Shown here one piece after another: positions 28,163 to 37,549 of a stretch of DNA of 43,994 nt. Below the pieces are notes generated by a model. That model made no database searches. It saw only the letters and a program-made list of their open reading frames with translations, and was not told the DNA's origin. The first letter of the stretch is position 1; each line of letters opens with the position of its first letter. The stretch is from Bifidobacterium breve (GTDB taxonomy: Bacteria > Acidobacteriota > Vicinamibacteria > Vicinamibacterales > CAVVIG01), in assembly GCA_943328785.2 (NCBI GenBank), contig CALQBJ020000003.1:1-43994 (forward strand), given 5' to 3'. Both the position numbers and the translations under genes were made by a program.

Positions 28163-28968
28163 CACCGCAGCCAACCCGTCGAGACAGCCAGAAGCAGCAC
28201 GATGCCGGTGAGTATCCGGTACCAGGCGAACGGCGCAAAGCCCATTCGTCGTACCACGGCCAGGAACGGCTTCACCACGACGAGCGAGGCGAGAAACGCC
28301 ATCACGAAGCCGATCACCAGTTCCAGGGAACGGTCGGCGGTGATCTGGCTGCGAAGTTCGAGGAGGCTGTGCGCGAACGTGGCCGCCAGCGTCGGCATGG
28401 CCAGGAAGAAGGAGAACTCCGCCGCGGTCGCACGGTCGAGCCCGGCCAACCGGCCGCCGACGATGGTGGCGCCGGAACGCGACACGCCCGGCACCAGCGC
28501 CAAGACCTGGAAGAGGCCGATGCCGAACGCCTGACCGGTCGTGGTGTCGTCCACCGACCTGGTGTGGGGCCTCATGGCTGCGCGTTCCACAGCCAGCATC
28601 ACGATGCCGCCGGCGATGAACGCCACGCCCATCGTGACCACGCTCTTGTGCAGGACCGATTCCACGTAGTCCGACGCGAGCGCACCAGCGACAAGCGCCG
28701 GAGCCACAGCCACGATGAGCATCAGCGCGAATCGACGCGCTTCTGGGCGGGTGGAAATGCCACGCACCACCTCCATCACCTTGCGGCGATAGAGCCAGAC
28801 GATGGCGAAGATGGAACCGAGTTGGATCATCTCGGTGAACACGCTGCCAGGGTCGTCGAACCCCAGCAGCCGTTCACCGATCAGGAGGTGAGCCGTCGAC
28901 GAAATCGGCAGGAACTCGGTGAGTCCCTGCACGATACCAAGGATGGCCGCGCCGAGCCAGGTGGGCAC
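28162..28968 (-). CDS. uppP: Undecaprenyl-diphosphate phosphatase
   Basis: GIVQGLTEFLPISSTAH, PGVSRSGATI, AAEFSFFLAMP. Confidence 0.95.
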   Translation of the reverse strand: MPTWLGAAILGIVQGLTEFLPISSTAHLLIGERLLGFDDPGSVFTEMIQLGSIFAIVWLYRRKVMEVVRGISTRPEARRFALMLIVAVAPALVAGALASDYVESVLHKSVVTMGVAFIAGGIVMLAVERAAMRPHTRSVDDTTTGQAFGIGLFQVLALVPGVSRSGATIVGGRLAGLDRATAAEFSFFLAMPTLAATFAHSLLELRSQITADRSLELVIGFVMAFLASLVVVKPFLAVVRRMGFAPFAWYRILTGIVLLLAVSTGWLR

Positions 28969-28974
28969 GCGCGA

Positions 28975-29988
28975 CTAAGACGCGCGTGCCTTACGCTGCG
29001 GCCTCGCCTTGCGGGTCGGCTGTTGCGGACCGCCCGAGGTCGCCGTGCCTGTGACCTCAGAGTCAGCGGTGGCGCGCGTCGGTCCGGCGCCGCGCCAGAA
29101 GGTGACGACCGCGGCGGCCACGAACACGCTCGAGTAGGTGCCGGTGACGATGCCGACGATCATCGTGAACGCGAAGCCCTTCAGCACGTCGCCGCCGAAG
29201 ACGAACAGCGCGACGACGCTGAGCAGCGTCAGCCCGGCGGTCAAGACGGTGCGTCCCAGGGTCTGGTTGATCGCGGTGTTGATGACGTCCTTCAGCGAGT
29301 CGCGCCGCATGCTGCGCAGGTTCTCTCGCACGCGGTCGAAGATCACGATGGTGTCGTTCGTGGAGTAACCGGTCACCGTCAGGATGGCCGCGATGACGTT
29401 CAGCGTCAGGTCGTACCGGAAGAACGCCAGGAACGCCACGACGATCAGCAGGTCGTGGATGGTGGCGACGACCGCACCGACCGCGAAGCTGAACTGATAG
29501 CGGAAGGCGATGTAGGCCAGCAGGCCGACCAGCGACAGGACCGTGGCGACCAGGCCGCGTTGCGACAGTTCCTTGCCAACCGCCGGACCAACAATCTCGG
29601 TGCCGACCACCGTGAAGTTCCCGAGGTTGCCGGCGCGCAGCGCCTGTTCGACCGCAGCCGCAGTGGTGCTGAGAGAGGCGCCGGATTCCTCGCCGACGTG
29701 CGGCACGCGCACCATCTTCTGGCGGCGCGACGCGTCACCGAAGGACTGGACGATCGCGTCCTGGCCGCCGCCCGCATAGTGCTGGTTCAACGCCACACGC
29801 ACCGCGTCGTCGCTCGGCGTCTGGTCGAATTCCATGATGACCGACGTGCCACCGGCGAACTCGATGCCGCGCGGAAGCCCCTTGGTGGCAATCATGGCGA
29901 GGCCAGCCAGGATGACGACCCACGACAGCGCCACGGCGTGCCACCGCCAGCGCATGAAGTCGATATTCGTTTTGTTGAGGATATGCAT
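28975..29988 (-). CDS. secF: Protein translocase subunit SecF
   Basis: GIEFAGG, EIVGPAVGKEL, HDLL, GYSTNDTIVIFDRVRE, QTLGRT. Confidence 0.95.
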   Translation of the reverse strand: MHILNKTNIDFMRWRWHAVALSWVVILAGLAMIATKGLPRGIEFAGGTSVIMEFDQTPSDDAVRVALNQHYAGGGQDAIVQSFGDASRRQKMVRVPHVGEESGASLSTTAAAVEQALRAGNLGNFTVVGTEIVGPAVGKELSQRGLVATVLSLVGLLAYIAFRYQFSFAVGAVVATIHDLLIVVAFLAFFRYDLTLNVIAAILTVTGYSTNDTIVIFDRVRENLRSMRRDSLKDVINTAINQTLGRTVLTAGLTLLSVVALFVFGGDVLKGFAFTMIVGIVTGTYSSVFVAAAVVTFWRGAGPTRATADSEVTGTATSGGPQQPTRKARPQRKARAS

Positions 29989-29994
29989 GACGGC

Positions 29995-31593
29995 TTAAAT
30001 CGACAGCGTCGTCACCTGAGACTTGCGCGACAGCTCAAGCTCAAACAACGTCTTAGAAACAAAGGTGGCCGTGAACAGGTTCGAGACGAGACCGGCGAAC
30101 AGCGTGACCGCGAAGCCGCGAATCGGGCCGGTGCCGAACTGGAACAGGAAGGCAGCGGAGATGAGTGCCGCCAGGTGCGTGTCCATCAGCGTCAGGAAGA
30201 CGCGGCTGAAGCCGGCGTTGATCGAGGCGCGAACTCCGCGCTGCGCCTCAAGTTCCTCCTTGATGCGCTCGAAGATCAGCACGTTCGAGTCGACGCCGAT
30301 GCCCATCGTCAGCACGAAGCCGGCGATGCCTGGCAGCGTCATCACGGCGCCCATGTAGCCCATGATGCCGACCAGGATGACGAGGTTCAGCAGCAGAGCG
30401 ATGACCGCGTTGACGCCGGCCATCTTGTAGTAGACGAGCATGAACACGATGATGAGCACCAGGCCGACGACCGATGCGATGACGCCGGCGCGGATGGAGT
30501 CGGCACCGAGGCTCGGGCCGATGGTCCGCTCCTCGAGGTAGGTAAGGGTGGCCGGCAGCGAACCCGAGCGAAGAATCAACGAGAGGTTCTGCACCTCTTC
30601 CTGCGTGAAGCTGCCCGAGATGCGGCCGTCGGAGGTGATGCGCGAATCGATGCGCGGTGCAGACTGGACGCGGCCGTCGAGGATGATGGCCAGCGAACGG
30701 CCGACGTTCTCGCCGGTCACCTTGCCGAACTTGGCGGCGCCCTCGGAGTTCAGGGTGAACGCGACCGCCGGACGGCTGTTCTCGTCGAGCGAGGGACGCG
30801 CGCTGCGCAGGTCGCGGCCGGTCACGGCGGCGGCGCGGCGCACGAGGTAGTAGACCGTGGAACCCGGCGCGTCGCCTGGACCGCTGATGCCGGGCACGAC
30901 GTCGAGGCCGGAGGGCAGCGTGCCGCTCGGGATGAGTGCCTCGCGCGACGCCGACGGCCCTTGCTCCACGATCTTCAGCTCAAGCAGGCCGGTGGAGCGG
31001 ATGATTTCCTTGGCGCGGTTGACGTCGGTGACGCCAGGGAGCTGCACCAGGATCTGGTCGCCGTTGGCGCCCTGCTGCGCAATGCTCGGCTCGGCGACGC
31101 CGAGCTCGTTCACGCGGCGCTCGATCGTCTGACGCGCCTGCACCACAGCCTCTTCACGCAGCGTCAGCGCGACGTTGGGCTTCAGCCTGAAGGTGTAGGT
31201 GCCGTTGGTGCCGGCGTCGCGATCGAAGTTCGCGCTGACCTCGTTGGCCGCCGCGCGGAACGCCGCGTCCTGGTCGCCGGCGATACCGTCGACCTTGAAG
31301 CCGTCGATCCCGGCCAGGACGAGATTCGTGCTGGTGATGCGGGCGGTCGAGAGCAGCTCGCGCAGCCGCTCCATTTCCGTCTCGCTCTCGATGCGCAGCG
31401 CGTCATCGGTCTGGACGCGGAGGACGAGATGCACGCCGCCCTTCAGGTCGAGCCCCAGCTTGAGCATGCGGTCCGTCAGGATCGTCGGGCCGGCAATGCC
31501 GTAGCGGGCCGCAATGATCGGATAGACCCCGACGGCACCGAAGATAACGGTGACGGCGATGATGGTAAGGAGCTTCCAGCGCAGATTGGACAT
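29995..31593 (-). CDS. secD: Protein translocase subunit SecD
   Basis: LGLDLKGG, RRVNELGVAEP, LRSGSLPA, GPSLG, VDSNVLIFERIKEE, GPIRGFAVTL. Confidence 0.96.
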   Translation of the reverse strand: MSNLRWKLLTIIAVTVIFGAVGVYPIIAARYGIAGPTILTDRMLKLGLDLKGGVHLVLRVQTDDALRIESETEMERLRELLSTARITSTNLVLAGIDGFKVDGIAGDQDAAFRAAANEVSANFDRDAGTNGTYTFRLKPNVALTLREEAVVQARQTIERRVNELGVAEPSIAQQGANGDQILVQLPGVTDVNRAKEIIRSTGLLELKIVEQGPSASREALIPSGTLPSGLDVVPGISGPGDAPGSTVYYLVRRAAAVTGRDLRSARPSLDENSRPAVAFTLNSEGAAKFGKVTGENVGRSLAIILDGRVQSAPRIDSRITSDGRISGSFTQEEVQNLSLILRSGSLPATLTYLEERTIGPSLGADSIRAGVIASVVGLVLIIVFMLVYYKMAGVNAVIALLLNLVILVGIMGYMGAVMTLPGIAGFVLTMGIGVDSNVLIFERIKEELEAQRGVRASINAGFSRVFLTLMDTHLAALISAAFLFQFGTGPIRGFAVTLFAGLVSNLFTATFVSKTLFELELSRKSQVTTLSI

Positions 31594-31598
31594 ATGGC

Positions 31599-33136
<1,538 letters not shown>

Positions 33137-33159: not shown

Positions 33160-34332
33160 GTGCAGAAAACCATCGCCACTCTCGCCGCGCTGGCCGGGGC
33201 GTGCATCGTCCTCTTCAGCGCCGGTCTCGTGGCGCTGCCGCGCAGCACATCGACCGGCTTGAGCGAGGCGCCGCGGCTGGCTGCCATCTACGACACCATC
33301 CTCCGGGCGCGCTTCGACGATGCCCGGATCCAGCTCGGGCGGGCCTGCCCTCCGGCGCCGACTCCCGCCTGCGACGCCCTGCGCGAGGTCGCACTCTGGT
33401 GGGAGATCCAGCAGGACCTGTCGAGCCGCACGCTCGACGCCCGCATGGACGCCGCGACTGCAGCAGGCCTCGCGGCGGCGACGAGATGGACCGAGCGCGA
33501 ACCCAACCGGGGCGAAGCCTGGTTCTACCTCGCAGGCGTATACGCGCCGCTGGCCCAGTGGCGGATACTCCGAGGCGAGCGGCTTGCGGCGGCGAGGGAC
33601 GGGAAGCGGGTGAAGGACGCGCTGGAGCGGGCGCTGGCACTTGATCCGTCGCTACAGGACGCCTGGTTCGGCATCGGCCTCTATCACTACTACGCCGACG
33701 TCGCCCCAGCCGCACTGAAGGTCCTTCGCTTCCTCCTGCTGCTCCCTGGCGGCGATCGCATCCAGGGGCTGCGTGAGATGGAGCGCACGCGCGAACGCGG
33801 CGAACTCCTGCGCGGCGAGGCCGACTTCCAACTGCACTGGCTCTATCTTTGGTACGAGGACCGGCCGGACCGCGCGCTCGAGCTCCTGCGCGGCCTCGAT
33901 GCACACTATCCGACGAACCCGCTGTTCCTGCAGCGCATCGCCACCGTCGAGCACGAGTACTTCAGCAATCACCAGGCAAGCGCGGCCAGCTGGCAGGCGC
34001 TGATCGATCGCGCGGCACGCGGTGCGGTCTCGCTCCCCGCACTCGCGGACGCACGCGGCCGCGTCGGCGCTGCCGCCGAAGCCACGGAACTCGGAGACCC
34101 GTCGCGCGCGGTCGCCCTGCTCGAGCCACTCATCGCCGCGCGCCCCGCTGCGCCGTACGGCATCGTCGCACTCGCGCACCTCGCACTCGGCGATGCCTAC
34201 GCCGCGGCTCGCAATCGTCCGCAAGCACTGGCGTCGTACGAACGCGCCCTCACCACGGCGCCGCGCGACGATCCGGACAACGTCCGCTCACGGGCCCGCG
34301 ATGGGCGTACGCGAGCTCGATCAGCGCGGTAA
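33160..34332 (+). CDS. TPR-like alpha-helical protein with N-terminal signal/TM segment
   Basis: Hydrophobic N-terminus; TPR-like AWFYLAGVY, ALALDPSLQDAWFGIGLY, AHLALGDAY...ALASYERAL. Confidence 0.78.
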   Translation: MQKTIATLAALAGACIVLFSAGLVALPRSTSTGLSEAPRLAAIYDTILRARFDDARIQLGRACPPAPTPACDALREVALWWEIQQDLSSRTLDARMDAATAAGLAAATRWTEREPNRGEAWFYLAGVYAPLAQWRILRGERLAAARDGKRVKDALERALALDPSLQDAWFGIGLYHYYADVAPAALKVLRFLLLLPGGDRIQGLREMERTRERGELLRGEADFQLHWLYLWYEDRPDRALELLRGLDAHYPTNPLFLQRIATVEHEYFSNHQASAASWQALIDRAARGAVSLPALADARGRVGAAAEATELGDPSRAVALLEPLIAARPAAPYGIVALAHLALGDAYAAARNRPQALASYERALTTAPRDDPDNVRSRARDGRTRARSAR

Positions 34333-34373
34333 TCAAGTGTCAGTTTTTTTTGACAATTTGCCATGATTCGTGC

Positions 34374-34401
34374 TTGACATGCATTCTTTCTCACCCATAA
34401 T
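34374..34401 (+). promoter_or_regulatory. Sigma-70-type promoter of the small Lys-rich ORF unit
   Basis: TTGACA (34374-34379)-N16-CATAAT (34396-34401) in an AT-rich patch. Confidence 0.6.
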
Positions 34402-34407
34402 CTACAT

Positions 34408-34607
34408 CTGGTATGAGGGTGGAGGGCGTAAGCCACCCCTAGTGAGGTTGACTTTCACCTCACCCTTCCGCACCTGAACCATACGGGTGGCGCGGCAGGT
34501 GCCAAGCGACGGCGGGGGTCGAGTGGGCGTGCCAGGCGGCACCCACGGATCGGCAGCCCGGGTCATTCGCGCCAAGACAAATCCAAACGAAGGGGGGGGA
34601 TAACACC
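34408..34607 (+). ncRNA. Candidate structured 5' leader/ncRNA of unknown family
   Basis: Consecutive hairpins: GGC-GTAA-GCC (GNRA loop), GTGAGGT/ACCTCAC, GCACCTG/CAGGTGC, GTGG..GTGCC/GGCAC-CCAC, TGGCGCG/CGCGCCA; no family assigned. Confidence 0.4.
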
Positions 34608-34661
34608 ATGGCAAAGAAGGCAGCCAAGAAGGCGGCGAAGAAGGCGGCGAAGAAGCGCTAA
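34608..34661 (+). CDS. 17-aa Lys/Ala-rich peptide MAKKAAKKAAKKAAKKR (histone H1-tail-like repeat)
   Basis: ATG GCA AAG AAG GCA GCC AAG AAG GCG GCG AAG AAG GCG GCG AAG AAG CGC TAA; G-rich RBS GAAGGGGGGGGA 7 nt upstream; repeat units differ only at synonymous Ala third positions; flanked by promoter and terminator. Confidence 0.7.
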   Translation: MAKKAAKKAAKKAAKKR

Positions 34662-34690
34662 CCGCTTCTCCCGTACGATCTCACCGTACG

Positions 34691-34720
34691 AAAAAAAGGG
34701 GGCGGCCGTCGCCCCCTTTT
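34691..34720. terminator. Bidirectional rho-independent terminator
   Basis: A7-GGGGGCG-GCCGT-CGCCCCC-T4 between the small ORF and the convergent PPIase gene. Confidence 0.88.
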
Positions 34721-34751
34721 CAATTGCTCCCCAGTCTTACGGCGGTTCCGC

Positions 34752-36881
34752 TCAGTTGGAACTGCCGTCCCAGACCCGCACCCGCCGGATCACATCCCAC
34801 GGCTCGATAGCATCGACGACGTCCATACCGGCCACGACGCGCCCGAAGACGGTGTAGCGATCGTCCAGGTGCGGCTGCGGTGCGTGGGTGATGAAGAACT
34901 GGCTGCCGCCGGTGTCCGCCCAGTCGAGCGCCATGCCCACGGTTCCCCGCAGGTAGGGTCGCTGGTTGATCTCATCGCGAATCGTGAATCCGGGGCCGCC
35001 TTCGCCGTCGCCCCTGGGGTCGCCGCCCTGAATCACGAAGTCGGGCACGACGCGGTGGATCGGAATGCCGTTGAAGAAGCCGCGGCGCGCGAGTTCGACG
35101 AACGTCTCGACGGTCGCCGGCGCATCGAGCACCGCCAGCTCGAGCTGGATGGTGCCGCGGTCGGTGTCGATGTAGACATGCGTCGACACCGGGGGCGCCG
35201 TCAGCGCCTGCCGCGCGTACCACTCGGGTTGACGCGCCTGCGGGGCCGGGCGAATCCGCGACTTCGCATCGCTGGCCGGATCGAGTTCGGTGAGCAGCGT
35301 GGCAGCTCGCACGCGAAGCGCCCAGTCTTTGTCGCCGAGCCCATCGGTCAGCAGCGGGGTCGCCGTTTCGCGACCGTAGGCCGTCAGCGCCGCGAGTACC
35401 GCCGCGCGTGCAATGTAGGTCGTGTCGCCGAGGCTGCGCTGATAGGCGTCGGCCAGCGCCGCAGGGCCGGCCACCGGCTTCATGAGCGCCATCGCGTTCG
35501 CGGCCGCCGCACGCACGACCGGGTCGCCCGACTTGAGCTGCTCGATCATCAGCGCGCCGCCGTCCTCCGGCTTCAGGCGCGCAATCGATCCGAGCACAGC
35601 CGGCAGCACCTTCGGCTCTGGATCGGCCAGCATGCTGCGCAGCCGCGGCAAGCCAGCCTCAGGCGCGAGCCCACCAAGGGCGGAAGCGAGGGCCGCACGC
35701 ACGCTCCAGTTCGGATCGGGATCGAGACCCGACAGTACGGCGACGAACCCTTCAGGATCGAGCTGTGCCATCGACTTGATCGCGGCTCCGCGTATCGACG
35801 GATTCGGGTCGCCGAGCACATCGATCAGCTGGTCGTAGACGCCGTCGGCGCGAATGGCGCCGAGTGCCGCCACCGCCTCGAGGCGCAGGTGCGGTTCAGC
35901 CCTGGGCGCCTGCACGATCTTCAACAGCGCCGGCGCCGCTGCCGGCACGCCGAGCCGCGCCAGCGAACGGATCGCCTCGATGGCCACCGACCGGTTCGGG
36001 TCGGTGATGAACGGCAGTAGCGCGGCAGACGCCACGGGATCCTTGATCGCGCCGAGCCCCTTTACCGCGAACGCACGCGTGTAGGGGTGCGGCTCCTTCG
36101 CGAGCGTCAGCAACGCCGGCAGCGCACGCGCATCTTCAAGTCGCTGGAACGCGAAGGCCACCGGCCACCAGCGGACCTTGGGTTGCCCACTGCCGTCCAG
36201 CACCAGCCCGGCGAGCGCGTCATAGGATTTCAGGCGAACCAGCGCGTAGACGGCCAGCCGAAACGCGGCGGGCGGCGTGTCGCGCGCCGCGTCGAGTTCG
36301 TCAGGCGGGAGCGTGGCGAACGCGCCAGACGCGAGCACATCCGCCCCCATGCTGGCGATCGCCGCGGCCGATGACGCATCGCCGAGCAGACCGAGCGCTT
36401 CAGCCGCACTGCCTTTGACAACCGGCGCCGGATCGGCGAGCGCGGCCAGCAGCGGCTCGCGGGCCGACACGTCACCGATGAGTCCGAGCGCATAGGCGGC
36501 CATCTGCCGCACTTCGGGATCGGCATCAGCCAGCAGGCCGACCAGCGGCGGCACGCCGGCCGGCACGCCGGCACGACCAATGGCGAGTGCGGCACGGCGG
36601 CGCACACGCGCTTCCGTGTCCGAGAGCAGCTGTACTAAATCGGGAACTGGCGGCGGTGGCGGCGTAGGCGCCACGGTGCGGCCGCGTACGGCGACAACCG
36701 GTGGCGGCGACTGCAGTACCGGGGCGGCGTCGCGTAGTGTCCGCGCATCCTCGAGCCTGAGGACCCACGACATCTTCTGTTCAAAGCTCGGTTCCGCCGG
36801 TGTCGTCGGCGCGACGGGAGGGGCACTGGCGCAGGCGCTGGCGCCGAGCGCAAGCAGCAGCGCGATCGTCGTACGCGTCAC
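34752..36881 (-). CDS. HEAT-repeat protein fused to a C-terminal cyclophilin-type PPIase, probable lipoprotein
   Basis: Start GTG 36881 (VTRTTIALLLALGASAC, lipobox ASAC); many DPxxxVRxxAAxALG repeats; cyclophilin TDRGTI...APATVETF...HRVVPDFVIQGGDP...GSQFFI...HLDDRYTVFG. Confidence 0.88.
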   Translation of the reverse strand: MTRTTIALLLALGASACASAPPVAPTTPAEPSFEQKMSWVLRLEDARTLRDAAPVLQSPPPVVAVRGRTVAPTPPPPPVPDLVQLLSDTEARVRRRAALAIGRAGVPAGVPPLVGLLADADPEVRQMAAYALGLIGDVSAREPLLAALADPAPVVKGSAAEALGLLGDASSAAAIASMGADVLASGAFATLPPDELDAARDTPPAAFRLAVYALVRLKSYDALAGLVLDGSGQPKVRWWPVAFAFQRLEDARALPALLTLAKEPHPYTRAFAVKGLGAIKDPVASAALLPFITDPNRSVAIEAIRSLARLGVPAAAPALLKIVQAPRAEPHLRLEAVAALGAIRADGVYDQLIDVLGDPNPSIRGAAIKSMAQLDPEGFVAVLSGLDPDPNWSVRAALASALGGLAPEAGLPRLRSMLADPEPKVLPAVLGSIARLKPEDGGALMIEQLKSGDPVVRAAAANAMALMKPVAGPAALADAYQRSLGDTTYIARAAVLAALTAYGRETATPLLTDGLGDKDWALRVRAATLLTELDPASDAKSRIRPAPQARQPEWYARQALTAPPVSTHVYIDTDRGTIQLELAVLDAPATVETFVELARRGFFNGIPIHRVVPDFVIQGGDPRGDGEGGPGFTIRDEINQRPYLRGTVGMALDWADTGGSQFFITHAPQPHLDDRYTVFGRVVAGMDVVDAIEPWDVIRRVRVWDGSSN

Positions 36882-36887
36882 GCCGCG

Positions 36888-36899
36888 GATGATATCATC
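36888..36899. promoter_or_regulatory. Palindromic bidirectional extended -10 element
   Basis: GATGATATCATC gives TGnTATCAT on both strands, 7 nt and 9 nt before the two divergent start codons. Confidence 0.6.
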
Positions 36900-36907
36900 G
36901 GGCCGCC

Positions 36908-37549
36908 TTGCAGTTCCGCCACATCGCGGTCGAAGGACCGATCGGCGCGGGCAAAACCGCTCTTGCCGAGCGGCTCGCCACCCGCCTCGACGCCACGCTG
37001 GTGCTCGAAGACACCGAGAATCCGTTTCTCGCGGACTTCTATGCCGATCGCCCGGGCGCGGCACTGCAGGCGCAGCTCTTCTACCTGCTCCAGCGGCATC
37101 GGCAACAGACCACGCTGCAACAGGCCGACCTCTTCAGTCAGACCACCGTCGCCGACTACCTGTTCGACAAGGACAAGATCTTCGCGTACCTGAACCTCGA
37201 CGATAACGAGCTGTTCATCTACCAGCGCCTGTACGACCTGCTGGCGCGCGACGTCCCAGGACCTGATCTGGTCATCTATCTTCAGGCGCCGACCGACGTC
37301 CTGCAGCGCCGCATTCGCAGCCGTAGCGCCCAACCCGAAATGGAAGGGTTCGAGCCCGACCCGGAATACCTCAAGGAACTGAACGAGGCCTATCACCACT
37401 TCTTCTTCCACTACGAGGCCACGCCGTTGCTCGTCGTCGAGACGTCGCAGTTCGATTCCGACGTCAGCGACGAGGCGCTCGACGACCTCGTGCGCCAGAT
37501 CGGCCAGATGGGAGCCGGCACCCGCTACTACGTCCCGCGGACGAAGTGA
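36908..37549 (+). CDS. Deoxynucleoside kinase family protein
   Basis: IAVEGPIGAGKT P-loop, ENPFL..FY, QLFYLLQR, PDLVIYLQA, YLKELNEAY. Confidence 0.9.
   Translation: MQFRHIAVEGPIGAGKTALAERLATRLDATLVLEDTENPFLADFYADRPGAALQAQLFYLLQRHRQQTTLQQADLFSQTTVADYLFDKDKIFAYLNLDDNELFIYQRLYDLLARDVPGPDLVIYLQAPTDVLQRRIRSRSAQPEMEGFEPDPEYLKELNEAYHHFFFHYEATPLLVVETSQFDSDVSDEALDDLVRQIGQMGAGTRYYVPRTK

Follow-up and report, generated by a model that had tools for sequence, protein, structure and literature searches.

Lys/Ala-rich tails of the histone H1-like type are found on chlamydial Hc2 and mycobacterial HupB. For Pseudomonas AlgP, one report (PMC11894788) describes a highly abundant protein whose KPAA-repeat tail is thought to bind DNA and which localises to polyphosphate granules. 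Here, we describe a micro-gene at positions 34608-34661 (forward strand) of a 43,994-nucleotide stretch of contig CALQBJ020000003.1 (assembly GCA_943328785.2, deposited as Bifidobacterium breve and with a GTDB lineage in the order Vicinamibacterales of the Acidobacteriota); this whole stretch is called the window throughout. The 17-residue product of the micro-gene resembles the tails of AlgP, Hc2 and HupB in being low-complexity sequence of Lys with Ala or other small residues, with no acidic residue and at high charge density. The difference lies in architecture: AlgP carries 54 repeats as a long domain on a structured N-terminal domain, whereas the micro-gene peptide is free-standing, is 14-31 residues long among relatives, and has its own promoter, leader and terminator. 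At such low complexity, homology to the H1-like tails is not claimable.

Tiny basic proteins are also known from ribosomes, among them bTHX and eL41. Others had at first gone unannotated, namely bS22 and bL37 of mycobacteria and Cutibacterium and the bL38 of Flavobacterium, and the micro-gene shares with these their size class, basic charge, annotation gap and lineage restriction. It differs from the tiny ribosomal proteins in matching no curated model, in consisting (after its first Met) almost wholly of Lys and small residues, in its plastic length and in its patchy occurrence in one family of the order (f10, below). The bL38 gene shares an operon with bL28 and bL33 (PMC11851116), whereas the micro-gene is not among ribosomal genes. 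The attenuator leaders of trp, his and thr operons are similar in another respect, as a short open reading frame (ORF) rich in one amino acid and followed by a terminator; the micro-gene is unlike them in having no co-directional operon downstream, in occurring as tandem copies in relatives, and in a peptide that appears to be conserved as a product.

We propose that the micro-gene is very probably a real, translated gene. The comparisons presented below support its reading as a free-standing, independently transcribed, conserved and unannotated protein-coding gene, apparently translated, whose product is a minimal polycation. Should the peptide indeed be produced, few conserved gene products of bacteria would be shorter, and it would amount to a polycationic tail of the H1/AlgP type standing alone. 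A search of the literature on small, lysine-rich or polycationic proteins of Vicinamibacter and Acidobacteria, and on small bacterial H1-like proteins, found no paper on this micro-gene, subscription journals being outside its coverage.

The micro-gene and its conservation

The ORF consists of 17 codons and encodes MAKKAAKKAAKKAAKKR, followed by TAA. After the ATG, all Lys codons are AAG, the Ala codons run in order GCA, GCA, GCC and four times GCG, and the terminal Arg is CGC. Its 8 Lys, 1 Arg and 7 Ala give nine positive charges among 17 residues, with no acidic residue and none that is hydrophobic after the Met. Since the program-made ORF list had a minimum of 20 residues, the ORF falls outside it. 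An earlier reading of this DNA, made from the letters alone (hereafter the sequence-only reading), had claimed just such an unlisted (KKAA)n ORF with nine basic and no acidic residues, and our reading of the window bears it out. It had also taken the synonymous Ala differences among the repeat units as a sign of selection on the peptide. The GCA/GCC/GCG differences are indeed there, but units 2 and 3 are the same DNA (AAGAAGGCGGCG twice), only two Ala third positions differ, and for this reason the argument is thin when made from the window alone. The repeat may include a recent tandem duplication, and the identical units are consistent with slippage, as in a chance ORF within a simple repeat. 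The promoter, ribosome-binding site (RBS), frame, start and stop are conserved order-wide, however, and the probability that we give to a chance ORF is negligible. The case for selection on the peptide therefore rests on comparison with other genomes.

The 391-nucleotide intergenic region that holds the ORF was matched in 40 of 41 related genomes. Within the family the match runs the full length at 67-89% identity; outside it, the promoter-proximal part and the ORF match as separate pieces. Public contigs that match the region carry the titles Acidobacteriota and Vicinamibacterales. Twenty family loci were fetched, one of which is cut by a contig end, and an intact orthologous ORF is present in all 19 complete ones; 18 of the 19 loci taken from other families or genera have one or two such ORFs. 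Altogether, 147 ORFs were found behind the G-rich RBS described below; this site was part of the search design, and loci recovered through plain DNA similarity have it too. All 147 are open and in frame, with a MAKK start, a KK[R/K] end and a length of 14-31 residues; for loci L040 onward the search pattern had fixed the MAKK start, the other features of the ORF being left free, and no frameshifted homologue was found among the 147. The window itself carries every hallmark of the locus, namely the promoter, the 5' element, the G-rich RBS, the MAKK start, the KK[R/K] end and the terminator. The sequence-only reading had looked to related genomes for a decision, with lost synteny, frameshifts or missing transcription as the outcomes that would speak against a gene. 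What the comparison returned is a syntenic region with ORF and RBS kept and with 0 of 147 ORFs frameshifted, along with RNA-library contigs that cover the ORF.

A coding signal is visible in the pattern of variation. Across the 19 family genomes, whose loci were recovered by DNA similarity alone, codon positions 1, 2 and 3 are conserved at 0.935, 0.885 and 0.80, compared with 0.91 for the RBS, 0.62 for the 3' untranslated region and 0.54 beyond the terminator. Tandem copies were compared as well. Most other families have two micro-ORFs per transcript: the RBS of ORF-A is of the AGGAGG type, and that of ORF-B, the orthologue of the micro-gene, is G-rich. ORF-A was detected by a strict rule in 45 of the 147 loci, none of them in the window's genus, and a looser rule gave 60 distinct two-ORF loci, 36 of them with copies of equal length. 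Across these 36 pairs, the differences between copies fall on codon positions 1, 2 and 3 in the numbers 42, 43 and 203, and 17 pairs encode the same peptide from DNA that differs by a mean of 6.5 nucleotides. The peptide thus agrees within a genome and differs between lineages. Because tandem copies keep the peptide despite synonymous differences, the peptide would seem to be the selected product, and the pattern is hard to explain otherwise. A further count, of variable sites in 18 DNA versions that code for a single peptide (0/0/9), is circular and was not used as support.

These observations also bear on the possibility that function resides in the RNA, either as a regulatory small RNA or as a dual-function RNA, or that the ORF acts only in cis, with ribosome loading or pausing on Lys codons controlling the stability of the RNA. 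Such a role would suit the 5' element and the second leader hairpin, which are at least as conserved as the ORF, the presence of the 5' signature in 196 of 251 genomes of the order, and the predicted pairing of the G-run of the ORF-B RBS with a C-run just before the ORF-A RBS, which suggests RNA-level control in two-ORF relatives. It sits poorly with variation that is greatest at third codon positions, with paralogues that keep their peptide through synonymous change, and with indels that are always in frame while start, stop and RBS are kept in 147 of 147 loci. Nor is there a same-strand downstream gene to control, and a scan of positions 33800-35200 against Rfam 15 at E up to 1 gave no family apart from a terminator-like fragment (33 nucleotides of the terminator part of an unrelated small-RNA model, E = 0.03, 19 bits against a gathering threshold of 123). 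We hold an RNA-only or cis-only function to be decidedly unlikely, while the leader may have an RNA-level role in addition to coding.

In the window's genus, ORF-B alone is left, with a variable hairpin region in the place of ORF-A, and ORF-A seems, from the loci compared, to have been lost repeatedly in this way. Three loci (L025, L043 and L108) have a decayed ORF-A, with ACG for ATG and then a shifted, Lys-poor reading, and the ORF-A of L033 has a frameshift-like form. In two-ORF loci such as L021, L042, L047, L056, L059 and L094, the G-run of the ORF-B RBS is predicted to pair with a C-run that lies about 250 nucleotides upstream and immediately precedes the ORF-A RBS, leaving it an unpaired probability of 0.07-0.14 (0.07-0.18 in a dozen loci). 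On these predicted folds, the pairing may couple translation of the two copies. The single-ORF form in the window has no C-run partner.

What is kept in the peptide is not its repeat. Within the genus the peptides form a series that begins with ...KGGKKKAG..., passes by way of ...KGAKKKAA... and ...KKAAKKAA..., and arrives at the perfect (KKAA)3, and the perfect form occurs in only four of the loci examined, which are part of the window's genus. As judged from these sequences, the (KKAA)n periodicity is a recent, derived variant, and the conserved property would be charge density, Lys with small residues, a MAKK start and a KKR end, rather than residue order or length. The peptides of relatives are made of K/A/G/T/S/P/V, and the commonest among them, MAKKAKGGKKKAGKKR, which is also the consensus of this peptide family, is identical in 55 of the 147 loci.

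Distribution in the order and phylum

A strict peptide pattern was searched for in 401 genomes of the phylum. It was found in 23 of 37 genomes of the order, always as a true micro-ORF, in 0 of 2 genomes that belong to the class but not to the order, and in 6 of the 362 other genomes of the phylum, where every match is visibly spurious. A 21-nucleotide signature that joins the -10 motif and the 5' element was present in 196 of 251 sampled genomes of the order, including nearly all genomes in 12 families. Two families stand apart, f5 with 3 of 22 genomes and f10 with 2 of 22. In f5 the 5' element is divergent and the ORF is present. In f10 the peptide pattern was found in 0 of 7 genomes, and among five f10 genomes that are 98-100% complete the 5' element was not found in four and gave a match with 3 mismatches in one. 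The locus therefore appears, on this sampling of genome sequences, characteristic of Vicinamibacterales and yet not universal there.

This distribution bears on the idea of a tiny protein, specific to the lineage, that belongs to the ribosome or associates with it and whose short basic chain fills a pocket in rRNA. A tiny and highly basic product (nine basic residues in 17), strong promoter and RBS signals, a gene doubled in most families, one sequence identical in over a third of the loci (55 of 147), and the precedents of bS22, bL37 and bL38 would all be in keeping with such a role. On the other side stand a length (14-31 residues) and residue order (KKAA as opposed to KGGKKK) that vary within one order, the locus not being found in most near-complete f10 genomes (20 of 22 by the 5' signature, 7 of 7 by the peptide pattern), and neighbours that encode a TPR protein or a D-Ala-D-Ala ligase, plus a HEAT-cyclophilin protein, and no ribosomal genes. 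Nine longer variants of 20-31 residues, chosen because these searches take queries from 20 residues upwards, gave no meaningful match in Pfam or NCBIfam at E up to 10. To our knowledge, no known ribosomal micro-protein is made purely of Lys and small residues. So plastic a peptide, nearly absent from f10 and encoded away from ribosomal genes, is in our view unlikely to be a ribosomal protein.

Several public records of metagenome-assembled genomes (L047, L059, L099, L103, L109, L113 and others) carry the full signature of the locus under the titles Acidimicrobiia, Bifidobacteriaceae or cyanobacterium; the titles or bins of these records may be wrong.

Possible function

In light of the micro-gene being very probably translated, what might its peptide do? 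On balance, we lean towards action through polyanion binding, to which the composition of the peptide points. Within that reading, the nucleoid or polyphosphate is a tentative choice of target, and the ribosome or rRNA an unlikely one. We envisage that the near-consensus promoter would drive an mRNA of about 310 nucleotides, whose 5' end would be held in the conserved stem-loop, probably stabilising the RNA or permitting its regulation. The extended G-rich RBS would load ribosomes onto the 17-codon ORF, and the transcript would end at the terminator common to the convergent gene. The first Met would likely be removed, giving a 16-residue peptide of 8 Lys, 1 Arg and 7 Ala, too short and too variable in sequence to fold. 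Such a peptide would most likely act as a gene-encoded oligocation, binding polyanions of the cell (chromosomal DNA, RNA or polyphosphate) and neutralising or compacting them in the manner of the Lys/Ala(/Pro) tails of H1-like bacterial proteins. Electrostatic action of this sort fits with a composition of Lys and small residues and a charge density that are kept while length and order vary. The anatomy of the gene, its conservation, a substitution pattern of coding type and its presence in RNA libraries are what the sequences show; translation of the ORF, abundance of the peptide and its electrostatic binding to a polyanion are what we infer here.

Several points weigh against this proposal. 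Conservation of the leader elements (0.90-1.00) equals or exceeds that of the ORF (0.80-0.94), and an RNA-level function could, on such figures, be the primary one. The locus was not found in most f10 genomes, which are 96-100% complete, and from this the function appears to be dispensable or replaceable. Translation, peptide and binding are all read from sequence. From the RNA contigs described below neither strand nor level nor ends can be read, and they may include carried-over DNA; one contig of depth 8 from run X4 crosses the promoter. The ORFs of other phyla that begin with MAKKAAKKAAKK (see below) are, as their sequences suggest, analogues and not homologues, because their start was imposed by the search pattern and their sequence is of low complexity. 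Lastly, a simple replacement of spermidine synthesis by the peptide was considered and rejected, since the spermidine-synthase domain, which 231 of the 251 order genomes have (20 of 22 in f10), is not distributed in a way complementary to the locus.

As a separate observation, one family (f12) has the spermidine-synthase domain in 4 of 12 genomes, which are of 1.5-4.6 Mb and several of which are incomplete, and the 5' signature in 12 of 12, a sample too small to build on.

Vicinamibacterales is an abundant and poorly cultured order of soil and freshwater. With one promoter, one leader and one 17-codon ORF, the locus offers a clean, testable system for asking how cells put encoded polycations to use in organising the chromosome, RNA or polyphosphate. 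It also exemplifies a class of genes that is invisible to current gene callers and family libraries.

The transcription unit

The features of the locus are collected in Table 1, along with the RNA-library contigs placed on it. The sequence-only reading had described a gene standing on its own, with a promoter, a purine-rich RBS and a downstream terminator. All of these were recovered, with a leader in addition, and the 147 intact orthologous ORFs agree with its view of a free-standing, minimal polycation. Its TTGACA-N16-CATAAT promoter is present as it had stated; what it had left unmentioned is the leader of about 200 nucleotides, the distance from promoter to ATG being 207 nucleotides.

Table 1. 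Features of the micro-gene locus and RNA-library contigs placed on it (conservation values are from the 19 family genomes)
Feature	Positions	Strand	Support or remark
A/T-rich stretch upstream of the -35 motif, ending TTCGTGC (TTTGTGC in most relatives)	34340-34373	+	conservation 0.91 at 34346-34357 and 0.96 at 34370-34381
Sigma-70-type promoter, TTGACA-N16-CATAAT, with conserved spacer TTTCTCAyC	34374-34401	+	score 11/12
5' leader element CTACATCTGGTATGAGGGTGG...CCACCCCTAGTGAGG, predicted 5'-terminal stem-loop	34402-34450	+	family conservation 0.90; 1.00 at 34406-34417
Variable middle of the leader, local hairpins; in the place of ORF-A of most other families	34451-34520	+	conservation 0.73
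Second conserved leader hairpin GAGTGGGCGTGCCAGGCGGCACCCAC	34521-34546	+	conservation 0.95 at 34526-34537 and 0.86 at 34538-34549
Extended G-rich Shine-Dalgarno-like site GAAGGGGGGGGAT, 6 nucleotides before the ATG	34589-34601	+	conservation 0.91 over 34590-34607
Micro-gene MAKKAAKKAAKKAAKKR and TAA, orthologue of ORF-B of the order-wide locus	34608-34661	+	reading, conservation, RNA contigs
Bidirectional intrinsic terminator-like hairpin (A7, GGGGGCG, loop, CGCCCCC, T4)	34691-34721		conservation 0.90
RNA contig, run X1	34423-34869		
RNA contig, run X2	34425-34582		
RNA contig, run X3	34420-34597		depth 223, 3 differing letters
RNA contigs, run X4	34294-34473 and 34544-34684		first contig crosses the promoter, depth 8

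The promoter is of a rare type in its own genome, one of 3 TTGACA-N16-18-YATAAT sites in the 3.83-Mb assembly, and the identical type precedes the micro-ORFs order-wide. The A/T-rich stretch before it is possibly, to judge from its conservation, an UP-like element or an operator, and its terminal TTCGTGC/TTTGTGC motif is also seen in the order-wide set of loci.

The most conserved part of the whole locus is the first 45 or so transcribed bases, transcription being taken to start at about 34406-34410. In single-sequence folds, the 5' end itself is paired into a long stem-loop. Alignment of 101 5' regions gave no consensus structure with RNAalifold. When the hairpin chosen from the single-sequence folds was laid on the same 101 sequences, its inner helix was 78% paired, with double changes in 6 of 7 pairs; for the whole 5' structure, 75% of cells were paired against 40-50% with slid partners, and 24 cells carried double changes against 10.8 in shuffles. 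A 5' stem-loop is accordingly modelled as plausible, with modest support from these counts. The fold of the whole transcript is of unremarkable stability (z = -1.4). A 9-codon ORF, MRVEGVSHP (34413-34442, forward strand), begins about 5 nucleotides past the presumed start of transcription, within the invariant 5' element. Its ATGAGG is nearly invariant and its length varies from 3 to 10 codons among relatives; it is probably a piece of RNA structure rather than a gene.

Further down the leader, the second conserved hairpin recurs upstream of ORF-B in relatives. A promoter/leader regulon was considered as well and rejected, as neither the 5' element, nor the spacer with the -10 motif, nor the second hairpin was found in a second copy in the assembly.

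The RBS is predicted to be mostly accessible in the window (unpaired probability 0.59). Sites of this kind are generally complementary to the 3' end of 16S rRNA, an end that was not found in this assembly. An ATG lying upstream within the RBS motif (MKGGI...) was examined as an alternative start and rejected, since only some genomes have it, and have it in frame, and the window has ACG in its place.

The core of the terminator hairpin (34698-34716), preceded by seven A and followed by four T, went uncalled by our terminator scanner, which demands at least 5 T. On the minus strand the T-run is longer and the terminator reads stronger; it is common to the micro-gene and the convergent gene downstream. 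Its position raises the question of whether the ORF is the leader peptide of a lysine-sensing attenuator. With 8 of 17 codons for Lys and a terminator hairpin 30 nucleotides past the stop, it has the outward form of one. The next gene is convergent, however, both here and in loci of families f1, f2, f8, f11 and f19 (at least four of them other than the window's own), the terminator is common to that gene, and most families have two such ORFs per transcript. An attenuator is thus rejected as very improbable, in agreement with the sequence-only reading, which had dismissed it on the grounds of the convergent gene.

Evidence from RNA libraries comes from public lake and freshwater metatranscriptomes, of which contigs from four runs in three studies were placed on positions 33900-35200. 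These contigs cover the leader and the ORF, transcription having been a point left to be checked by the sequence-only reading; parts of the window without RNA-contig cover are no evidence of silence. Runs X1 to X3 have no contig upstream of 34384, and their three contigs, from 3 runs of 2 studies, start within 6 nucleotides of each other, 10-19 nucleotides past the presumed start of transcription. This clustering is a weak hint of a 5' end. Run X4 also holds a contig of depth 2302 that matches the ORF with 2 differences, and which probably comes from a relative.

Neighbouring genes

Upstream of the locus lie a gene for a TPR protein (33160-34332, forward strand) and, farther off, one for tRNA-guanine transglycosylase. 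The downstream neighbour, convergent to the micro-gene (34752-37064, reverse strand), encodes a 770-residue protein in which HEAT repeats are fused to a prolyl isomerase of the cyclophilin type at the C-terminus. Loci of families f1, f2, f8, f11 and f19 have this gene in the same place and orientation. The arrangement may reflect a functional link or simply old synteny. Synteny is claimed here only for loci with a real domain in the flanks, as picks of the longest frame in high-GC flanks are often spurious and have no Pfam hit. Elsewhere in the window, positions 28369-31638 (forward strand) hold an open frame of 1089 residues for which no Pfam family was found at E up to 0.001.

Similar ORFs in other phyla

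A search for the exact start MAKKAAKKAAKK, with one genome per species and the first 12 residues thereby imposed, gave at least 119 loci (L191-L309). Among the matches listed, at least 87 are complete stand-alone ORFs of 17-61 residues composed only of K/A/P/T/V/G/S/R, most of them ending in KKK or AKK; at least 13 of these have the RBS of the Vicinamibacterales type and at least 74 are without it, with Verrucomicrobiota, Bacteroidota, Planctomycetota and others among the titles of their records. At least 32 of the listed matches, from records with Verrucomicrobiaceae or Prosthecobacter in the title, have in common another conserved motif upstream, and at least 11 share a further one, in Flavobacteriales records. 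Other listed matches are titled Planctomycetota, Kiritimatiellia, Cytophagales and more. At least 11 of those listed are not stand-alone and form the N-terminal tails of longer proteins, which continue with a conserved ...NAAFM... motif and which we take to be SWIB-like.

Exact look-up of 10 of the stand-alone ORFs (27-61 residues) in a collection of 15 billion proteins found 0 of 10 present. A protein search with a 43-residue natural analogue gave 8000 word-sharing candidates and none at E up to 0.001, probably due to the low-complexity correction, a result that is uninformative on the spread of the family.

It is a rather doubtful but far-reaching extension, made by analogy, that several phyla encode free-standing oligolysine micro-proteins, 14-60 residues in length and composed of Lys with Ala, Gly, Pro or Thr, in the role of proteinaceous polyamines. 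If so, cells would have in them an abundant and tunable supply of counter-ions for compacting the nucleoid, organising condensates of polyphosphate or RNA, or stabilising ribosomes, and Vicinamibacterales would use for this a dedicated order-wide promoter and a structured leader, which possibly senses the peptide or the polyanion or ion state. Few known protein-coding genes that are conserved would be shorter than theirs, and annotation would be missing them systematically.

Within the 3.83-Mb assembly, K-rich stretches occur 12 times in any open frame, and 11 of these lie in frames of at least 111 residues. The micro-gene is the sole short K-rich ORF of the whole assembly and the sole copy of its locus there. 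Lys/Ala-rich tails, N- or C-terminal, are found on many long ORFs (contigs C37, C29, C2, C9, C11, C48, C148 and C170), and the tailed ORF of C37 continues with ...NAAFMKPV, the motif also seen in the 11 tail-type loci that begin with MAKKAAKKAAKK.

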